IMG/VR virus record: IMGVR_UViG_2563366870_000003
Source: a virus
Lineage: Duplodnaviria; Heunggongvirae; Uroviricota; Caudoviricetes
Length of the DNA: 48,200 nucleotides
Reading direction: 5' to 3' (one strand)
This document shows, one piece after another, positions 19,672 to 45,000 of the stretch; the first letter of the stretch is position 1, and every line of letters starts with the position of its first letter. The position numbers and the translations under genes are program-made. The notes under the pieces were generated by a model. The model saw only the letters and a program-made list of their open reading frames with translations. It did not search any database and was not told the DNA's origin.

Positions 19672-19858
19672 CCCATCTCAATCCCTTCAATACCTGAAAG
19701 AAAGCATAGAGCGGGCTTCAATGTGCACAGAGTGGATTCTATCTAGGTTTAGCGCATACAGAAGATTGCCGGTAAAGGGCATGCCAAGCAAGTCGATGCT
19801 GCATATGCAAAAGAATGCGCGCTGGAAGGTATGGCGAGAACACAGGTTATGTGGCTGA
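19664..19858 (+). CDS. NinF-like small protein, 64 aa (only the N-terminal ~20 aa resemble lambda NinF)
   Basis: N-terminus [18 protein letters not shown] resembles lambda NinF; remainder lacks the Cys-rich NinF C-terminus. Confidence 0.4.
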
Positions 19859-19877
19859 AAGAGGGGGTTATTAAGGC

Positions 19878-20240
19878 GTGAATACCTACAGCATCACATT
19901 ACCCTGGCCTCCGAGCAATAATCGCTATTACCGCCATAATCGCGGGCGCACGCACGTCAGCGCAGAGGGGCAGGCATACCGCGATAACGTCGCCCGAATC
20001 ATTAAAAACGCAATGCTGGATATCGGCCTGGCTATGCCTGTGAAAATCCGCATTGAGTGCCACATGCCGGATCGCCGTCGCCGTGACCTGGATAATCTGC
20101 AAAAAGCCGCTTTTGACGCACTCACTAAAGCAGGTTTCTGGCTGGATGATGCTCAGGTCGTTGATTACCGCGTTGTGAAGATGCCCGTTACCAAAGGTGG
20201 GAAGCTGGAGCTGACTATCACTGAACTGGGAGATGAATGA
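19878..20240 (+). CDS. rusA: RusA Holliday-junction resolvase, 120 aa (GTG start)
   Basis: [47 protein letters not shown]…; recognised as RusA from memory. Confidence 0.9.
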
Positions 20241-20377
20241 TGTTTGAGTCTTATATGGCAGAGCGTCTTCGCCGCCGCTGGGTGCGCCTGCGCTTATATC
20301 GTTTTCCTGGTTCTGTTTTGACCGATTACCGAATACTGAAGAATTACGCCAAAACCCTGACAGGAGCAGGAGTATGA
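20240..20377 (+). CDS. Small protein downstream of rusA, 45 aa (ylcG-like position)
   Basis: Manual translation [48 protein letters not shown] overlaps rusA stop by 1 nt. Confidence 0.4.
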   Translation: MFESYMAERLRRRWVRLRLYRFPGSVLTDYRILKNYAKTLTGAGV

Positions 20378-20462
20378 AGTCAGAGATAACAATCAACTAA
20401 TACTGTTTTGTTGATTTTTGCTTGTAATTGGCGTTCTGGTCTGATTTTTGTGGAGTAAGTTG

Positions 20463-20846
20463 ATGCGTGATATTCAGATGGTTCTTGAGCGTTGGGGAGC
20501 GTGGGCGGCTAATAATCATGAAGATGTGACCTGGTCGTCCGTTGCCGCCGGTTTTAAGGGATTAATTCCTTCAAAAGTAAAATCTCGCCCGCAATGTTGT
20601 GACGATGACGCGATGATCATTTGCGGGTGCATGGCCCGTCTGAAAAAGAACAACAGCGATTTACACGATTTATTAGTAGATTATTATGTATGTGGTATGA
20701 CATTCATGTCACTGGCAAGTAAGCATTGCTGCTCGGATGGTTATATCGGGAAAAGGTTACAGAAGGCTGAGGGCATAATTGAAGGGATGTTAATGGCATT
20801 AGATATCCGGTTAGATATGGATATCGTTGCTAATAATTCTAATTGA
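20463..20846 (+). CDS. Late-gene antiterminator Q (DLP12 QuuD-like), 127 aa
   Basis: ATG at 20463 after GGAGTAAG; Cys-rich region (…[18 protein letters not shown]…KHCCSDGY…); position immediately upstream of the late promoter region. Confidence 0.8.
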
Positions 20847-20867
20847 TATGCAATTGTTTACTAAAAG

Positions 20868-20896
20868 TTATTAAAAATGGGGCGTGGAAACGCCCC
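20868..20896 (-). terminator. Minus-strand intrinsic terminator downstream of the porin gene
   Basis: Hairpin GGGGCG-TGGAAA-CGCCCC (20879-20896); minus-strand RNA follows with AUUUUUAAUAA. Confidence 0.45.
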
Positions 20897-20987
20897 CAAA
20901 ATAAAGGGTAATATATAACAGAAGGTTTATATAGTAAGAAGCAAGGTAGTGCTTCTAAAGGAAGTGGCTTGAGGGCTCCACTTATAT

Positions 20988-21023
20988 GTTGCGGAGGCAA
21001 AGCCTCCCGCAACATATCTTTTT
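20988..21023 (+). terminator. Plus-strand intrinsic terminator after the Q/late promoter region (tR'-like)
   Basis: 10-bp stem with one bulge (GTTGCGGAGG…CCTCCCGCAAC) followed by ATATCTTTTTCG; about 140 nt downstream of the Q stop. Confidence 0.5.
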
Positions 21024-21034
21024 CGTAAGTCAGA

Positions 21035-22117
21035 TTAGAACTGATAAACCAGACCTACAGCGACGATGTCGTCGGTATCAATACCAGCTGTTTTGGTAAA
21101 CTTACTATCGTCAATTAAGTTGATTTTGTAATCAACAAAAGTGGACATGTTTTTATTAAAGTAGTAAGTAGCACCGACATCGACATACTTGACTAAGTCT
21201 CGGTCACCATGAACACCAAGGTCTTTACCTTTTGACTGAAGGTAAGCAACAGATGGTCGCAGACCGAAGTCAAACTGATATTGTGCTACTGCTTCAAAGT
21301 TTTGTGCTTTGTTTGCAATATGGTTATTACCAAAAACGGTCATATTCTGAGTTTCAGAATATGTGGTAGCCAGATAGATATTGTTCGCATCATATTTCAG
21401 GCCTGCAGCCCATACTTCCGCATTTTTGCCGGAGGCATTGAATTTGCTCTTACCATAGGCGACCTGACCGTCAGTGCGATCTGATTTAGCATAGGTTGCA
21501 CCCACGCCGAATCCTTCATACTCATAAGTAGTGGAGAAACCGAAACCATCACCATTGGCTTCAGTTACGTCAGTGCGGTCATTTTTACCCTGATACTGAG
21601 CAGCAAAGTTCAGGCCATCGACCAGACCAAAGAAGTCGTTGTTACGATAAGTTGCAACACCAGTAGTGCGACCAGTCATGAACACATCTGTTTGGGTCCA
21701 GGTATCACCACCGAATTCTGGCAGGACGTCAGTCCACGCACCGATGTCGTATGCTACACCGTAGTTACGGCCGTAATCGATTGAGCCGTAATCACCAAAT
21801 TTCAGGCCTGCAAATGCAAGACGGGTTTTGTCTTTGGAAGAACCTTGAGATTCAGCACGGTTGCCTTTGAATTCATATTCCCACTGACCGAAACCAGTCA
21901 GTTGATCGTTGATTTGGGTTTCACCTTTGAAGCCAAGACGGGCATAAGTAGTATCACCATCATCTGCATCATTAGAGGAGAAGTAGTGCTTGGCATTAAC
22001 TTTCCCGTATAGATCCAGCTTGTTACTGTCTTTATTATAAATTTCAGCTGCCTGAGCAGACATCGCCATCAGTACTGATGCAGCTACAGCAGAAATTGCC
22101 ACTGTTAATTTTTTCAT
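21035..22117 (-). CDS. Phage-borne general porin (OmpC/OmpF/NmpC family), 360 aa
   Basis: Signal peptide [29 protein letters not shown]; porin signature …GFGQWEYEF…; C-terminal …VGLVYQF; antisense to the late operon. Confidence 0.9.
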
Positions 22118-22544
22118 TGTACGCCCTTTTTTTTGAACTATTATTAAAAAATGATGTCACTGCGCGATAAATATTCATCTAATCAATGCGATTATTTCAA
22201 GATGTAAGTTTTAGTTTCTCATTTAATTTGTGAAGTAGATCTCTATTTTTATCTGAACCTTTTCTATCTAATCCTATTCATGGCTCTTGTTTGAACGAAA
22301 ATAAATCTATTAGCTAATTTATATTAATGGCACTTATTTATAAGCACTCTATAATTCTTTAGCTTAATTTAAACAAACTAAAAATAACATCGGAAATTAT
22401 TCATTGGTTATTTGTTGAAGTTTTCTTATGTATTTGTGGTGGTGTTTTGAACACTCGGTGGCATTCTCACAAATATCATTTAGTAGTTTACGTACGTAAA
22501 AAATTGGTTATGCTGTTAAGAGTGGTTACTTCGTCACACAGCTT

Positions 22545-22577
22545 AAACCCGCCGTCGAGCGGGTTTTTCCATTTTTT
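22545..22577 (+). terminator. Plus-strand intrinsic terminator upstream of the holin gene
   Basis: Hairpin AAACCCGC-CGTCGA-GCGGGTTT (22545-22566) followed by TTTTCCATTTTTT. Confidence 0.5.
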
Positions 22578-22706
22578 GAGTCTCGATATTAGCTGATAAC
22601 CCAATACCTGAGTTATTCACTGACTCCGAATCTGTTACGTTTCTGCCTTTATTGCGATACGTAGTATCCCCTTAATTTACACCCGCTTTGTCTGCGAGGT
22701 GGGGTT

Positions 22707-22922
22707 ATGAAATCCATGGATAAGTTAACAACGGGTGTCGCCTATGGCACCTCAGCAGGTAGTGCCGGGTACTGGTTTTTACAGTTGCTCGATAAAGTCA
22801 CGCCCTCACAGTGGGCGGCAATAGGTGTGCTGGGTAGCCTGGTATTTGGCCTGCTGACGTACCTGACAAACCTTTATTTCAAGATTAAAGAAGATAAGCG
22901 TAAGGCTGCACGGGGAGAGTAA
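22707..22922 (+). CDS. Holin, phage-21 S-type (pinholin), 71 aa with dual start (M1/M4)
   Basis: [71 protein letters not shown]; two TM segments; dual-start motif MKSM. Confidence 0.85.
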
Positions 22923-22926
22923 TTCA

Positions 22927-23241
22927 ATGACTCAAAACTATGAACTGATTGTGAAAGGGATCCGCAATTTTGAGAATAAAGTTACGGTAACTTTAGCGTT
23001 ACGGGACAAAAAACGCTTTGACGGTGAAATTTTTGACCTGGACATCTCGCTGGACCGTGTTGAAGGTGCCGCGCTGGAGTTTTATGAGGCTGCAGCCAGA
23101 AGGAGCATCAGACAGGTCTTCCTGGATGTTGCTGCCGGGTTATGTGAAGGGGACGAGCTGTTGCCAGAAACGCGCCCCTGTTCAGAGGCGCGGTATACCA
23201 TAAAAATTAACAGTTCAGATAACTCGATTACTGGTTGTTAG
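22927..23241 (+). CDS. Hypothetical protein inserted between holin and endolysin, 104 aa
   Basis: ORF track; ATG at 22927 five nt after holin stop; no recognised motif. Confidence 0.45.
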   Translation: MTQNYELIVKGIRNFENKVTVTLALRDKKRFDGEIFDLDISLDRVEGAALEFYEAAARRSIRQVFLDVAAGLCEGDELLPETRPCSEARYTIKINSSDNSITGC

Positions 23242-23477
23242 CCTTTTGTTTCAGTTGGTTTTCCAATATCTTTCATTGGTAGCAGCATTTCCAGATTGCT
23301 TTTGATATATGGATTATTTACATGTTCATTTAATTGATGAATGATTCCATTTTTTTCATTCTGGTCCAATACGGAAAATATTACTGTAATCATATATTTA
23401 AGAGCTTCAATTTCTTTTGCTGTTGATGCAGGAGATGAGCAGTCAGCTGTAATATTGATAAAAACTTCTTTTTGCAT
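23238..23477 (-). CDS. Hypothetical small protein, 79 aa, very AT-rich, convergent with the 22927-23241 ORF
   Basis: ORF track; ATG at 23475-23477; stop overlaps the plus-strand ORF stop by 4 nt; roughly 30% GC. Confidence 0.4.
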   Translation of the reverse strand: MQKEVFINITADCSSPASTAKEIEALKYMITVIFSVLDQNEKNGIIHQLNEHVNNPYIKSNLEMLLPMKDIGKPTETKG

Positions 23478-23611
23478 ATCAAATCCTCAGATGGGGTAGC
23501 TCAGCCAGCATCCCCCATAATCCTTAACCAGAGCGCCAGTGTCCTACCACTGACGGGCTGAATGCTTAACATATCCAGGGTTCAGAAACCGATAAATCCT
23601 GATAAATATCC

Positions 23612-24145: not shown

Positions 24146-24603
24146 GAAGAGTTGCCGCGATTATCTCCGCTCTGGTTATCTGCATCATCGTCTGCCTGTC
24201 TTGGGCTGTTAATCATTACCGCGATAACGCGATTACCTACAAAGCCCAGCGCGACAAAAATGCCAGAGAACTGACGCTGGCGAACGCGGCAATTACTGAC
24301 ATACAGATGCGTCAGCGTGATGTTGCTGCGCTCGATGCAAAATACACGAAGGAGTTAGCTGATGCGAAAGCTGAAAATGATGCTCTGCGTGATGATGTTG
24401 CCGCTGGTCGTCGTCGGTTGCACATCAAAGCAGTCTGTCAGTCAGTGCGTGAAGCCACCACCGCCTCCGGCGTGGATAATGCAGCCTCCCCCCGACTGGC
24501 AGACACCGCTGAACGGGATTATTTCACCCTCAGAGAGAGGCTGATCACTATGCAAAAACAACTGGAAGGAACCCAGAAGTATATTAATGAGCAGTGCAGA
24601 TAG
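24142..24603 (+). CDS. Rz (i-spanin), 153 aa, GTG start overlapping endolysin stop
   Basis: GTGA overlap; N-terminal TM segment ([20 protein letters not shown]) then coiled-coil; Rz1 is embedded in the +1 frame. Confidence 0.75.
24362..24544 (+). CDS. Rz1 (o-spanin lipoprotein), 60 aa, embedded in Rz
   Basis: Signal peptide with lipobox LVVVGC; proline-rich mature region ([15 protein letters not shown]). Confidence 0.75.
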
Positions 24604-24634
24604 AGCTGCCCATATCGATGGGCAACTCATGCAA

Positions 24635-24928
24635 TTATTGTGAGCAATACACACGCGCTTCCAGCGGAGTATAAATGCCTAAAGTAATAAAACCGAGCAA
24701 TCCATTTACGAATGTTTGCTGGGTTTCTGTTTTAACAACATTTTCTGCACCACCACAAATTTTTGCTGCATCGACAGTTTTCTTCTGCCCAATTCCCGAA
24801 ACGAAGAAATGATGGGTGATGGTTTCCTTTGGTGTTACTGCTGTAGGTTTGTTTCCAACAGTAAACGTCTGTTGAGCACATCCTGTAATAAGCATTGCCA
24901 GAGCGGCAGAAAACAACATTTTTTTCAT
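24635..24928 (-). CDS. bor: Bor lipoprotein (serum-resistance protein), 97 aa
   Basis: In-frame ATG at 24926-24928: MKKMLFSAALAMLITGCAQQTFTV…EARVYCSQ; matches lambda Bor from memory. Confidence 0.9.
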   Translation of the reverse strand: MKKMLFSAALAMLITGCAQQTFTVGNKPTAVTPKETITHHFFVSGIGQKKTVDAAKICGGAENVVKTETQQTFVNGLLGFITLGIYTPLEARVYCSQ

Positions 24929-26350: not shown

Positions 26351-26498
26351 TTGATGATGCCTCTGTGTGAAATGACGGTAAACGACGCACTTGTGCCGGC
26401 ACATAATAGCAAGCACCATAATAGATCAGATTCGATTCTTGCTGTAAGTGATAATTATTCTCGTTTTCGGGTCCTTTCCGTCGATCCAACAGGTTACG

Positions 26499-40644: not shown

Positions 40645-41388
40645 ATGACACAGACAGAATCAGCGATTCTGGCGCACGCCCGGCGATGTGCGCCAGCGGA
40701 GTCGTGCGGCTTCGTGGTAAGCACGCCGGAGGGGGAAAGATATTTCCCCTGCGTGAATATCTCCGGTGAGCCGGAGGCGTATTTCCGTATGTCGCCGGAA
40801 GACTGGCTGCAGGCAGAAATGCAGGGTGAGATTGTGGCGCTGGTCCACAGCCACCCCGGTGGTCTGCCCTGGCTGAGTGAGGCCGACCGGCGGCTGCAGG
40901 TGCAGAGTGATTTGCCGTGGTGGCTGGTCTGCCGAGGGACGATTCATAAGTTCCGCTGTGTGCCGCATCTCACCGGGCGGCGCTTTGAGCACGGGGTGAC
41001 GGACTGTTACACGCTGTTCCGGGATGCTTATCATCTGGCGGGGATTGAGATGCCGGATTTTCATCGCGAGGATGACTGGTGGCGTCACGGTCAGAATCTC
41101 TATCTGGATAATCTGGAGGCCACAGGGCTGTATCAGGTGCCGTTGTCATCAGCACAACCGGGCGATGTGCTGCTGTGCTGTTTTGGTTCATCGGTGCCGA
41201 ATCATGCCGCCATTTACTGTGGTGATGGCGAGCTGCTGCACCATATTCCTGAACAACTGAGCAAACGAGAGAGGTATACCGACAAATGGCAGCGACGCAC
41301 ACACTCCCTCTGGCGTCACCGGGCATGGCGCGCATCTGCCTTTACGGGGATTTGCAACGATTTGGCCGCCGCATCGACCTTCGTGTGA
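40645..41388 (+). CDS. K: Tail tip assembly protein K (MPN/JAMM plus NlpC/P60 domains), 247 aa
   Basis: JAMM motif …LVHSHPGG…; NlpC/P60-like Cys/His region (…VTDCYTLFRDAYHLAG…); 3' end overlaps gene I by 103 nt. Confidence 0.85.
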   Translation: MTQTESAILAHARRCAPAESCGFVVSTPEGERYFPCVNISGEPEAYFRMSPEDWLQAEMQGEIVALVHSHPGGLPWLSEADRRLQVQSDLPWWLVCRGTIHKFRCVPHLTGRRFEHGVTDCYTLFRDAYHLAGIEMPDFHREDDWWRHGQNLYLDNLEATGLYQVPLSSAQPGDVLLCCFGSSVPNHAAIYCGDGELLHHIPEQLSKRERYTDKWQRRTHSLWRHRAWRASAFTGICNDLAAASTFV

Positions 41389-41957
41389 AAACGGGGGCTG
41401 AAGCCATCCGCGCACTGGCCACACAGCTCCCGGTGTTTCGTCAGAAACTGAGCGACGGCTGGTATCAGGTACGGATTGCCGGGCGGGACGTCAGCACGTC
41501 CGGGTTAACGGCGCAGTTACATGAGACTCTGCCTGATGGCGCTGTGATTCATATTGTTCCCAGAGTCGCCGGGGCCAAGTCAGGTGGCGTATTCCAGGTT
41601 GTCCTGGGGGCTGCCGCCATTGCCGGATCATTCTTTACCGCTGGAGCCACCCTTGCAGCATGGGGGGCAGCCATTGGGGCCGGTGGTATGACCGGCATCC
41701 TGTTTTCTCTCGGTGCCAGTATGGTGCTCGGTGGTGTGGCGCAGATGCTGGCACCGAAAGCCAGAACTCCCCGTACACAGACAACGGATAACGGCAAACA
41801 GAACACCTATTTCTCCTCACTGGATAACATGGTTGCCCAGGGCAATGTTCTGCCGGTTCTGTACGGTGAAATGCGCGTGGGGTCACGCGTGGTTTCTCAG
41901 GAGATCAGCACGGCAGACGAAGGGGATGGTGGTCAGGTTGTGGTGATTGGTCGCTGA
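41286..41957 (+). CDS. I: Tail tip assembly protein I, 223 aa
   Basis: Matches lambda I from memory. Confidence 0.95.
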   Translation: MAATHTLPLASPGMARICLYGDLQRFGRRIDLRVKTGAEAIRALATQLPVFRQKLSDGWYQVRIAGRDVSTSGLTAQLHETLPDGAVIHIVPRVAGAKSGGVFQVVLGAAAIAGSFFTAGATLAAWGAAIGAGGMTGILFSLGASMVLGGVAQMLAPKARTPRTQTTDNGKQNTYFSSLDNMVAQGNVLPVLYGEMRVGSRVVSQEISTADEGDGGQVVVIGR

Positions 41958-42017
41958 TGCAAAATGTTTTATGTGAAACCGCCTCCGGGCGGTTTTATCG
42001 TTTATGGAGCATGACGA

Positions 42018-45000
42018 ATGGGTAAAGGCAGCAGTAAGGGGCATACCCCGCGCGAAGCGAAGGACAACCTGAAGTCCACGCAGCTGCTGAGTGTGATCGA
42101 TGCCATCAGCGAAGGGCCGGTTGAAGGTCCGGTGGATGGATTAAAAAGCGTGCTGCTGAACAGTACGCCGGTGCTGGACAGTGAGGGGAATATCAATATC
42201 TCCGGTGTCACGGTGGTGTTCCGGGCAGGTGAGCAGGAGCAGACTCCGCCGGAGGGGTTTGAATCCTCCGGTTCCGAGACGGTGCTGGGTACGGAAGTGA
42301 AATATGACACGCCGATCACCCGGACCATCACGTCGGCAAACATCGACCGTCTGCGCTTTACCTTCGGTGTGCAGGCACTGGTGGAAACCACCTCAAAGGG
42401 GGACCGGAATCCGTCGGAAGTCCGCCTGCTGGTTCAGATACAACGTAACGGTGGCTGGGTGACGGAAAAAGACATCACCATTAAGGGCAAAACCACCTCG
42501 CAGTATCTGGCCTCGGTGGTGGTGGGTAACCTGCCGCCGCGCCCGTTTAATATCCGGATGCGCAGGATGACGCCGGACAGCACCACAGACCAGCTGCAGA
42601 ACAAAACGCTCTGGTCGTCATACACCGAAATCATCGATGTGAAACAGTGCTACCCGAACACGGCACTGGTCGGCGTGCAGGTGGACTCGGAACAGTTCGG
42701 CAGCCAGCAGGTGAGCCGTAATTATCATTTTCGCGGGCGCATCCTGCAGGTGCCGTCGAACTATAACCCACAGACGCGGCAATACAGCGGTATCTGGGAC
42801 GGAACGTTAAAACCGGCATACAGCAACAACATGGCCTGGTGTCTGTGGGATATGCTGACCCATCCGCGCTATGGCATGGGGAAACGTCTTGGTGCGGCAG
42901 ATGTGGATAAATGGGCGCTGTATGTCATCGGTCAGTACTGCGACCAGTCGGTGCCTGACGGATTTGGCGGCACGGAGCCGCGCATCACCTGTAATGCGTA
43001 CCTGACCACACAGCGCAAGGCGTGGGATGTGCTCAGTGATTTTTGCTCGGCGATGCGCTGTATGCCGGTATGGAACGGGCAGACGCTGACATTCGTGCAG
43101 GACCGACCGTCGGATAAGGTGTGGATCTATAACCGCAGTAATGTGGTGATGCCGGATGATGGCGCGCCGTTCCGCTACAGCTTCAGCGCCCTGAAAGACC
43201 GCCATAATGCCGTTGAGGTGAACTGGATTGACCCGGATAACGGCTGGGAGACGGCGACAGAGCTTGTGGAGGACACGCAGGCCATTGCCCGTTACGGTCG
43301 TAACGTCACGAAGATGGATGCCTTTGGCTGTACCAGTCGGGGGCAGGCACACCGCGCCGGGCTGTGGCTGATTAAAACGGAGCTGCTGGAAACGCAGACC
43401 GTGGACTTCAGCGTGGGCGCAGAAGGGCTTCGTCATGTACCGGGCGATGTCATTGAAATCTGCGATGATGACTATGCGGGTATCAGCATCGGCGGGCGCG
43501 TGCTGGCGGTGAACAGCCAGGCGCGGACACTGACGCTCGACCGTGAAATCATGCTGCCATCCTCCGCCACCACGCTGATAAGCCTGGTTGACGGAAATGG
43601 CAATCCGGTCAGCGTGGAGGTCCAGTCCGTCACCGACGGCGTGAAGGTGAAAGTGAGCCGTGTTCCTGACGGCGTTGCCGAATACAGCGTGTGGGGGCTG
43701 AAGCTGCCGACGCTGCGCCAGCGCCTGTTCCGCTGTGTGAGTATCCGGGAGAACGATGACGGTACGTATGCCATCACCGCCGTGCAGCATGTACCGGAAA
43801 AAGAAGCCATCGTGGATAACGGGGCGCACTTTGACGGCGACCAGAGCGGCACGGTGAATGGTGTCACGCCGCCAGCGGTGCAGCACCTGACCGCCGAAGT
43901 CACCGCAGACAGCGGGGAATATCAGGTGCTGGCGCGATGGGACACGCCGAAGGTGGTGAAGGGCGTGAGCTTCCTGCTTCGCCTTACCGTGGCAGCGGAC
44001 GACGGCAGTGAGCGGCTGGTCAGCATGGCCCGGACGACGGAAACCACATACCGCTTCAGGCAACTGGCGCTGGGGAACTACAGGCTGACAGTCCGGGCGG
44101 TAAATGCGTGGGGGCAGCAGGGCGATCCGGCATCGGTATCGTTCCGGATTGCCGCACCGGCAGCGCCGTCGCAGATTGAGCTGACACCGGGGTATTTTCA
44201 GATAACCGCCACGCCGCATCTTGCGGTTTATGATCCGACGGTACAGTTTGAGTTCTGGTTCTCGGAAAAGCGGATTGCGGATATCAGGCAGGTTGAAACC
44301 ACAGCACGCTATCTTGGCACGGCGCTGTACTGGATAGCCGCCAGTATCAATATCAAACCGGGCCATGATTATTATTTTTACATCCGCAGTGTGAACACCG
44401 TTGGCAAATCGGCATTTGTGGAGGCTGTTGGCCAGCCGAGTGATGATGCATCCGGCTATCTGAATTTTTTCAAAGGAGAGATAGGGAAAACCCATCTGGC
44501 TCAGGAGTTGTGGACGCAGATTGATAACGGTCAGCTTGCGCCTGACCTGGCTGAAATCAGGACGTCCATTACGGGTGTCAGCAATGAAATCACGCAGACC
44601 GTCAATAAGAAACTGGAAGACCAGAGTGCAGCGATCCAGCAGATACAGAAGGTTCAGGTTGATACAAATAATAACCTGAACAGCATGTGGGCTGTGAAGC
44701 TGCAGCAGATGCAGGACGGACGCCTTTATATCGCGGGTATTGGTGCCGGTATTGAGAATACCCCTGACGGTATGCAGAGTCAGGTGCTGCTGGCGGCGGA
44801 CAGGATTGCGATGATTAATCCTGCGAATGGCAATACAAAGCCGATGTTTGTTGGTCAGGGCGATCAGATATTTATGAATGAAGTGTTCCTGAAATATCTG
44901 ACGGCTCCCACCATTACCAGCGGCGGTAATCCTCCGGCATTTTCCCTGACACCGGACGGGCGGCTGACGGCGAAAAATGCGGATATCAGCGGTAACGTGA

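Follow-up and report, generated by a model that had tools for sequence, protein, structure and literature searches.

The locus described here raises the question of how late transcription reaches the lysis genes of a phage that carries a porin gene, in the opposite orientation, between these genes and the gene for the antiterminator Q. The locus (positions 20463-22922) lies within a 48,200-nucleotide stretch of DNA from a virus of the class Caudoviricetes (IMG/VR record IMGVR_UViG_2563366870_000003), hereafter the window, to which all coordinates refer. A first, sequence-only reading of the window placed the porin gene inside the late operon, held that late transcripts would have to read through at least two terminators on their way to the lysis genes, and predicted strict Q dependence for that reason. 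Here, we identify the locus as the already known lc/nmpC lysogenic-conversion cassette of lambdoid prophages (DLP12/qsr' and PA-2), including the small RNA IpeX, next to a Q-pR' cassette of the 933W type. The porin unit, with its own promoter, its own terminator and IpeX, very probably sits between a QuuD/933W-type Q gene and the late promoter, pR', that belongs to this Q, and is divergent from pR'. With pR' beyond the porin gene, the porin and late promoters would point away from each other, and late transcripts would never cross the porin gene.

Organization of the locus

The gene order is rusA-ylcG-Q-porin-holin-lysozyme-Rz-Bor. In sequence searches, positions 20400-22950 of the window are 100% identical to Escherichia phage Perceval, and at least 80% of the locus is present in 36 phage records. 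The same order and orientation are found in DLP12 of Escherichia coli K-12 (quuD-nmpC-essD-rrrD-rzpD-borD), with 88-90% nucleotide identity over Q, the Q-porin spacer, the porin gene, its upstream region, the pR' module and the holin gene; the 3' untranslated region (UTR) of the porin gene and the pR'-tR' segment are nearly identical to those of the window. The two loci differ as follows: the K-12 nmpC gene is split by IS5 near its 3' end, whereas the porin gene of the window is an intact, 360-amino-acid allele found in a viable phage (Perceval); the holin leader in K-12 has a 17-bp deletion relative to the window; and rrrD directly follows essD in DLP12, whereas in the window a DUF1327 gene and a 79-amino-acid antisense open reading frame (ORF) lie between the holin and endolysin genes. 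The genes, homologies and hairpins listed below can be read directly at this locus; the features on which the argument depends are the following.

20463-20846, plus strand: Q antiterminator, QuuD/933W type, 127 amino acids (PF06530, E = 9e-54)
21035-22117, minus strand: general porin of the Lc/NmpC type, 360 amino acids (Pfam, PDB and comparison with PA-2)
22487-22521, plus strand: putative late promoter pR', with -35 TTTACG at 22487-22492, a 16-bp spacer, -10 TATGCT at 22509-22514 and a predicted start at A22521
22515-22544, plus strand: conserved initial transcribed region, candidate qut (Q loading and pause), nearly invariant in four phages, with the function predicted
22545-22578, plus strand: tR'-like putative intrinsic terminator, the sole one between pR' and the holin gene (hairpin 22545-22566 and T-run, from the terminator scan), 130 bp before the holin ATG
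22707-22922, plus strand: S21-type holin with a dual start (MKSM...), the first late gene (PF04971, E = 2e-35; annotated as EssD in E. coli genomes)

Position of the late promoter

The window Q is 80% identical to the 933W-type Q of phage SC370 and distantly matches Q21 in PDB entry 6p18 (E = 3e-8). Homology to the Stx-phage Q breaks off near 20822 and is taken up again at 22484, so that the porin cassette appears as an insert of about 1.66 kb (approximately 20823-22483) between Q and the promoter of Q. In a sensitive search with 22118-22706, the segment 22484-22568 was found to be 78-89% identical to, and collinear with, a segment present in more than 300 Stx-phage records, where it adjoins the Q 3' end or overlaps with it. 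Where regulatory annotation is given, as in VT2-Sakai and SC370, this segment is labeled as pR' putative late promoter, putative Q-utilization and terminator.

The start of the Sakai pR' transcript has been mapped by differential RNA sequencing (dRNA-seq); in the same study, an RNase E cleavage site was placed at +173 (GU|AUU), and the tR' end seen by Term-seq fell at +258 (Sy et al. 2020). Within VT2-Sakai, A738 is the only start compatible with the two anchors, with U910 as +173 and the last T of the run after the hairpin 967-989 as +258, and A738 aligns with A22521 of the window. Furthermore, 22484-22577 is the most conserved non-coding segment of the locus, with 94% invariant columns (conservation being given throughout as the share of invariant columns among eight diverged loci). 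The window, Sakai, SfII and PC-NDM34 all have a -10-like hexamer of the form TA...T upstream of a common AAGAGTGGTTAC start region, and 22515-22544, which overlaps the "putative Q-utilization" annotation of VT2-Sakai, is nearly invariant among the four, although their Q proteins are only 43-80% identical. The segment holds a putative promoter homologous to a mapped pR' and one predicted intrinsic terminator ahead of the first late gene.

Compared with the Stx phages 933W and Sakai, the window has an 80%-identical Q and a promoter, initial transcribed region and first hairpin that are 78-89% identical and collinear, in a different arrangement. The Stx phages have pR' overlapping the Q 3' end and the morons (tRNAs and stx) downstream of tR', whereas in the window pR' does not directly follow Q: a 1.66-kb antisense moron intervenes, and the distance from the Q stop (20846) to the -35 element (22487), which includes the porin unit, is about 1.64 kb. 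The +258 terminator of Sakai and the segment that generates StxS fall beyond the homology, which stops at window position 22568. The pR' transcript predicted for the window is no homolog of the small RNA StxS, which corresponds to about +174 to +258 of the Sakai pR' transcript, past the end of the homology.

This position of pR' removes the porin gene from the late operon, in which the sequence-only reading had put it, and leaves only the 22545-22577 hairpin, instead of two or more terminators, between pR' and the holin gene. Q dependence of the lysis genes is still to be expected, as in any lambdoid phage; the argument from two terminators fails.

The textbook cassette has pR' directly after Q, and an alternative built on it would assign tR' to the palindrome at 20984-21023, a strong plus-strand hairpin with a T-run about 140 nt past the Q stop and thus in a tR'-like position; Q-modified polymerase would then have to traverse the whole porin gene in antisense, and pass the 22545-22577 terminator as well, before reaching the lysis genes. 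The scan detected no promoter-like site in 20847-20984, however, and this interval has no homology to pR', which has its homolog at 22487-22521. Homology to the Q-porin spacer is confined to porin-carrying phages (36 of 36 matches keep the full spacer), and the K-12 Term-seq data contain only minus-strand ends in this spacer.

The same slot in two other phages also argues against this alternative. In E. coli PC-NDM34, Q (51% identical) is followed, across 29 bp that hold one bidirectional hairpin, by an antisense KAP NTPase gene, then by the transcribed module with its hairpin and a lambda-type holin gene. In Shigella phage SfII, two antisense hypothetical genes come next, with only 3 bp between Q (43% identical) and the stop codon of the nearer one, and beyond them lie the module and the holin gene. 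Gaps of 29 and 3 bp leave no room for a promoter beside Q, and we consider a pR' in that position extremely improbable for the window. Taken together, the three arrangements suggest that the slot between Q and pR' is a recurrent insertion site for morons transcribed leftward.

A different late promoter could be sought within the AT-rich DNA between the porin gene and pR'. The best plus-strand hexamer match of the region (10 of 12 positions) is at 22327-22355 (ATGGCA-17-TATAAT); transcription from it would give a leader of about 215 nt up to 22577, similar in size to the lambda 6S RNA, with 22487-22514 as a secondary or inactive site. The TATAAT is retained in K-12. The -35 element is not conserved, however (ACGGCT in PA-2 and K-12, AAGGTT in N9), and conservation is lower around this site than anywhere else in the locus. 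Promoter-like matches in this AT-rich DNA are below chance (5 found against 9.2 expected), and the site is absent from SfII, PC-NDM34 and the Stx phages, all of which share the downstream module. We therefore give this site next to no credence as the late promoter and retain the placement of pR' at 22487-22521.

The Q-porin spacer and IpeX

The 188-bp spacer between Q and the porin gene is 94% identical to its counterparts in DLP12 and PA-2, which are identical to each other. The following features were delineated in it.

20873-20896, minus strand: putative intrinsic terminator of the porin gene and IpeX; hairpin 20879-20896 followed by AUUUUU (scan, fold and K-12 3' ends)
20984-21023, both strands: long imperfect palindrome (15 bp, a single bulge) that on the minus strand forms a 5' stem-loop of the IpeX region and on the plus strand has the shape of a terminator, with CTTTTT
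20873-21034, minus strand: 3'UTR of the porin gene, homologous to ipeX (94% identity to DLP12 and PA-2, and fold)

IpeX, a 167-nt RNA of DLP12, is transcribed together with the porin gene from the phage porin promoter, is released from this porin transcript by processing and represses ompC and ompF (PMC12197685; PMC5069750). The 3'UTR of the window lies on the porin strand between the porin stop codon and a rho-independent terminator, and its length fits the 167 nt of IpeX; the 167 nt of 20868-21034 fold on the minus strand at -53.6 kcal/mol (z = -6.5). From the literature on its relatives, this allele would likewise be expected to repress ompC and ompF. An Rfam search of 19800-23600 at permissive thresholds returned no family for IpeX or for the pR' leader and only two chance-level matches (sau-19, E = 0.67; Trp leader, E = 0.99).

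The hairpin 20879-20896 has a T-run on the minus strand only, with a folding free energy (dG) of -13.8 and z = -3.5 in the terminator scan and fold. Mapped RNA ends at this locus come from a relative: K-12 3' ends were taken from Term-seq data (Adams et al. 2021, supplementary file 1) and carried to the window by alignment. The minus-strand ends 574367 and 574366 correspond to window positions 20873 and 20872, at the last U of CCCC-AUUUUU, so that a minus-strand terminator near 20873 has experimental support in a close relative and may be expected here. A further minus-strand end, 574476, corresponds to 20981, which is 3 nt beyond the base of the large hairpin. A Rho-termination region of K-12 follows closely, antisense to ybcQ.

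The palindrome 20984-21023 folds at -21.9 on the plus strand and -22.5 on the minus strand (z = -5.6 and -6.0, respectively). Only on the plus strand does CTTTTTCG follow its stem at 20984-21017, and none of 200 shuffled sequences was as good. The large hairpin is demonstrably part of the minus-strand RNA; a role as a plus-strand terminator is plausible. If the palindrome served mainly as such a terminator, insulating the porin gene from rightward early transcription past Q, and not as a structural element of IpeX, the strong stem at 20984-21017 with CTTTTT after it on the plus strand alone would be accounted for, and so would the observation that an extra rrnB terminator in the nmpC/quuD spacer of K-12 had no effect, which the authors credit to the existing intrinsic terminators (PMC11677980). 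The 3' end that Term-seq places at the base of the palindrome in K-12 is, however, on the minus strand, without a plus-strand partner; SfII has no terminator between Q and its antisense gene; and in strain N9 the T-run of the palindrome is shortened to TTTT. Insulation as the main role is thus possible, if somewhat doubtful. The two roles are not mutually exclusive, and we treat the palindrome foremost as the 5' stem-loop of the IpeX region.

The sequence-only reading had seen these hairpins, each with a T-run on one strand, as back-to-back convergent terminators. Both are present (20879-20896, minus; 20984-21017, plus), but they are crossed and not face to face, with the minus-strand terminator beside Q and the plus-strand one beside the porin stop codon, so that RNAs terminated there would share an overlap of about 150 nt. 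A rightward transcript running past Q and ending at 21019-21026 would be perfectly complementary, over about 150 nt, to IpeX and the 3' end of the porin transcript, and pairing of such early rightward RNA upon induction could inactivate IpeX or the porin mRNA, for example via RNase III. We regard such a mechanism as quite unlikely. Were it to operate, antisense pairing would couple the lytic switch to host porin expression, and the slot between Q and pR' would be a dedicated site for antisense morons, insulated from phage transcription yet sensing it. The crossed hairpins are the one slightly unusual detail of the locus, and a function for the crossing is unlikely. Terminator-like sites in the region are not above chance in comparison with shuffled sequence (5 found, 4.3 expected).

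Three ORFs, 20839-21015 (minus), 22044-22178 (minus) and 22447-22596 (plus), overlap the spacer or the regulatory elements and were rejected as unsupported.

The porin and its upstream region

The porin matches the entire profile of the Pfam family Porin_1 (PF00267) with E = 1.9e-151 and a score of 504.7 bits (curated cut-off, 23.7), residues 29-360 corresponding to profile positions 1-337 of 337, and by sequence similarity it resembles the solved chains of OmpC, OmpK36 and OmpF, with E values down to 6e-137 (OmpC). The translation ends in LVYQF, with an aromatic terminal residue. Residues 1-98 are identical to those of the Lc porin of phage PA-2 (GenBank J02580), for which a 23-amino-acid signal peptide is annotated, and the segment 22049-22117 accordingly codes for a predicted signal peptide that is the same in both. 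Over the whole protein, identity to Lc is 91%, with differences grouped at residues 181-186, 219-232 and near the C-terminus; the first two groups are surface-loop segments, and the window protein is 5 residues shorter. The Q-porin spacers of the two phages are 93.7% identical, and the annotated CAP site of PA-2 is conserved in the window. Replacement of the host porin by the phage porin is the known phenotype of PA-2, and the logic of lysogenic conversion is taken to be the same here.

Upstream of the porin gene, the following features were distinguished.

22118-22316, minus strand: porin 5'UTR and promoter-proximal region, the equivalent of K-12 PnmpC (-199 to -1), from conservation, the PA-2 CAP site and K-12 data
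22251-22483, no strand assigned: AT-rich spacer between the divergent porin and late promoters (23-28% GC; 67% invariant columns, the lowest in the locus)

In K-12, PnmpC lies within -199 to -1 of the nmpC start codon and has been characterized by deletions and by mapping of the transcription start through 5' rapid amplification of cDNA ends (5'RACE); CRP activates this promoter through two sites, and OmpR, IHF and MprA repress it (PMC11677980). By alignment, the two CAP sites annotated in the PA-2 record fall at window positions 22226-22246 (TTTGTGAAGTAGATCTCTATT) and 22523-22543. The proximal 133 bp (22118-22250) have 84% invariant columns. By-eye inspection of the minus strand placed no porin -10 or -35 hexamer with confidence.

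The AT-rich region noted upstream of the porin gene in the sequence-only reading is readily seen, with a GC content of 23-28% over 22125-22500 against about 50% in the flanks. That reading had assigned to 22118-22545 the porin promoter and possibly a small RNA; the promoter region is there, as K-12 PnmpC and the CAP site indicate, whereas the known small RNA, IpeX, is on the other side of the porin gene, in the 3'UTR. A conserved small RNA or small ORF within 22251-22483 was considered and rejected: conservation is at its lowest here (67%), which speaks against such an RNA, and the sole promoter-like match in the segment is within chance.

The picture of a complete OmpC/NmpC-family porin gene on the minus strand holds: with its signal peptide, its terminator and the promoter region ahead of it, this is an antisense unit that stands on its own. 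The unit has the properties of a moron: a promoter and a terminator of its own (both from K-12), absence from Stx phages with an 80%-identical Q, and atypical GC content.

Points against the proposed arrangement

Several observations weigh against the arrangement that we favor. The transcript evidence comes from relatives of this phage. The pR' hexamers are weak (8 of 12 matches, with a 16-bp spacer) and were missed by the consensus scan. The sigma-dependent pause element expected downstream is not obvious, the -10-like hexamer being TACTTC, without the final T, where Sakai has TACATT, nor could a Q-binding repeat be identified in the initial transcribed region.

The hairpin at 22545-22566, which had been read as a strong terminator about 130 bp before the holin gene, is where it was said to be and has a T-run. 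It is, however, modest: 8 pairs, 5 of them G-C, with z = -2.0, and 12 of 200 shuffled sequences fold as well. Its Sakai homolog (for 22545-22577) is at least partly read through, the mapped tR' being a second terminator at +258, and the scan found no second terminator between 22545-22578 and the holin gene in the window. The hairpin must then terminate adequately here, or basal expression of the lysis genes is tolerated, as has been reported for DLP12. Among the K-12 3' ends from Term-seq, none on the plus strand falls at the homolog of tR', for which a short RNA of about 50 nt or the inactivity of a cryptic prophage could be the explanation, and none at the homolog of 20984-21023.

The details given for IpeX come in part from reviews. 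Castillo-Keller et al., in 2006, reportedly located IpeX in the stretch that separates the nmpC stop codon from the rho-independent terminator.

Expression model and implications

By analogy with DLP12, PA-2 and the Stx phages, the locus probably works as follows. In the lysogen, the porin gene would be transcribed leftward from a CRP-activated, OmpR- and IHF-repressed promoter in the AT-rich upstream DNA, and this transcription would stop at the intrinsic terminator beside Q, at about 20873. The structured 3'UTR of about 160 nt would be the IpeX RNA and lower host OmpC and OmpF, so that the phage porin would replace the host porin. Late transcription would begin beyond the cassette, at pR' (-35 at 22487, -10 at 22509, start at about A22521). 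Without Q, the pR' transcript would stop at the single hairpin and T-run of 22545-22578, yielding an RNA of about 50-58 nt; with Q, read-through into the holin, endolysin and spanin genes would follow. In this phage, the activity of pR', the efficiency of termination and the function of IpeX are all predicted from relatives, in which promoter activity and RNA ends have been mapped.

The import of these findings beyond correct annotation is small: lysogenic conversion by this porin cassette has been studied from the 1970s-80s onward and is textbook knowledge, and IpeX, PnmpC and the 933W-type pR' have each been described before. The useful correction is one of position, namely that the late promoter of this large prophage family is to be sought beyond the porin gene and not beside Q. 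Predictions of late-gene or moron expression, and the design of reporters or deletions, would take 22487-22578 as the putative Q-responsive module and 20873-21034 as a 3'UTR that probably carries a small RNA.

Distribution of the locus

Some match to a 2-kb query from the locus was found in 4076 of 5426 complete E. coli genomes, and at least 80% of this query in at least 2462 of the 5426. Relatives of the porin are encoded by 461 IMG/VR viral contigs; among the best 80 of these 461 loci, Q, the spacer, the promoter region, the pR' module, the leader and the holin gene are each kept in 75-80. The porins of these 80 loci are all 100% identical, so that the counts attest to linkage, and the set lacks the sequence divergence that a covariation analysis of the IpeX fold would need.

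An unannotated orphan fragment, about 82% identical to 22077-22447, is found beside ybcM and an IS200/IS605 element in E. coli 1008S19 and strains like it. It spans only the start of the porin gene and the AT-rich upstream DNA and is a decayed DLP12-like remnant.

Neighboring genes and other observations

Between the holin and endolysin genes, the window encodes a DUF1327 protein of 104 amino acids (22927-23241, plus strand; PF07041) that is missing from K-12 DLP12. It is followed by the 79-amino-acid ORF on the minus strand (23238-23477), which is truly within the late lysis cassette, coincides with an AT-rich stretch (23250-23480) and matches phrog_21218 (unknown function; E = 1.9e-57); the Perceval record has no annotation for this ORF. 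Another antisense moron lies upstream of ninB/orf, at about 17480-18525 on the minus strand, corresponding to Perceval 41127-42170, where it is labeled as an alpha/beta hydrolase (acetyl esterase/lipase).

The K-12 Term-seq list also includes a strong minus-strand 3' end at 578444, antisense to rzpD/rzoD and about 156 nt beyond the borD stop codon. The bor transcript would thus overlap the spanin genes in antisense, at approximately 24480-24635 of the window.

Finally, the coordinate offset between the two sequences at this locus would put window position 26498 at the final base (50143) of the linear Perceval record. Beyond this point the window would run on into the start of that record, as would be the case for a circularly permuted sequence or for a prophage copy such as that in E. 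coli SK1144.

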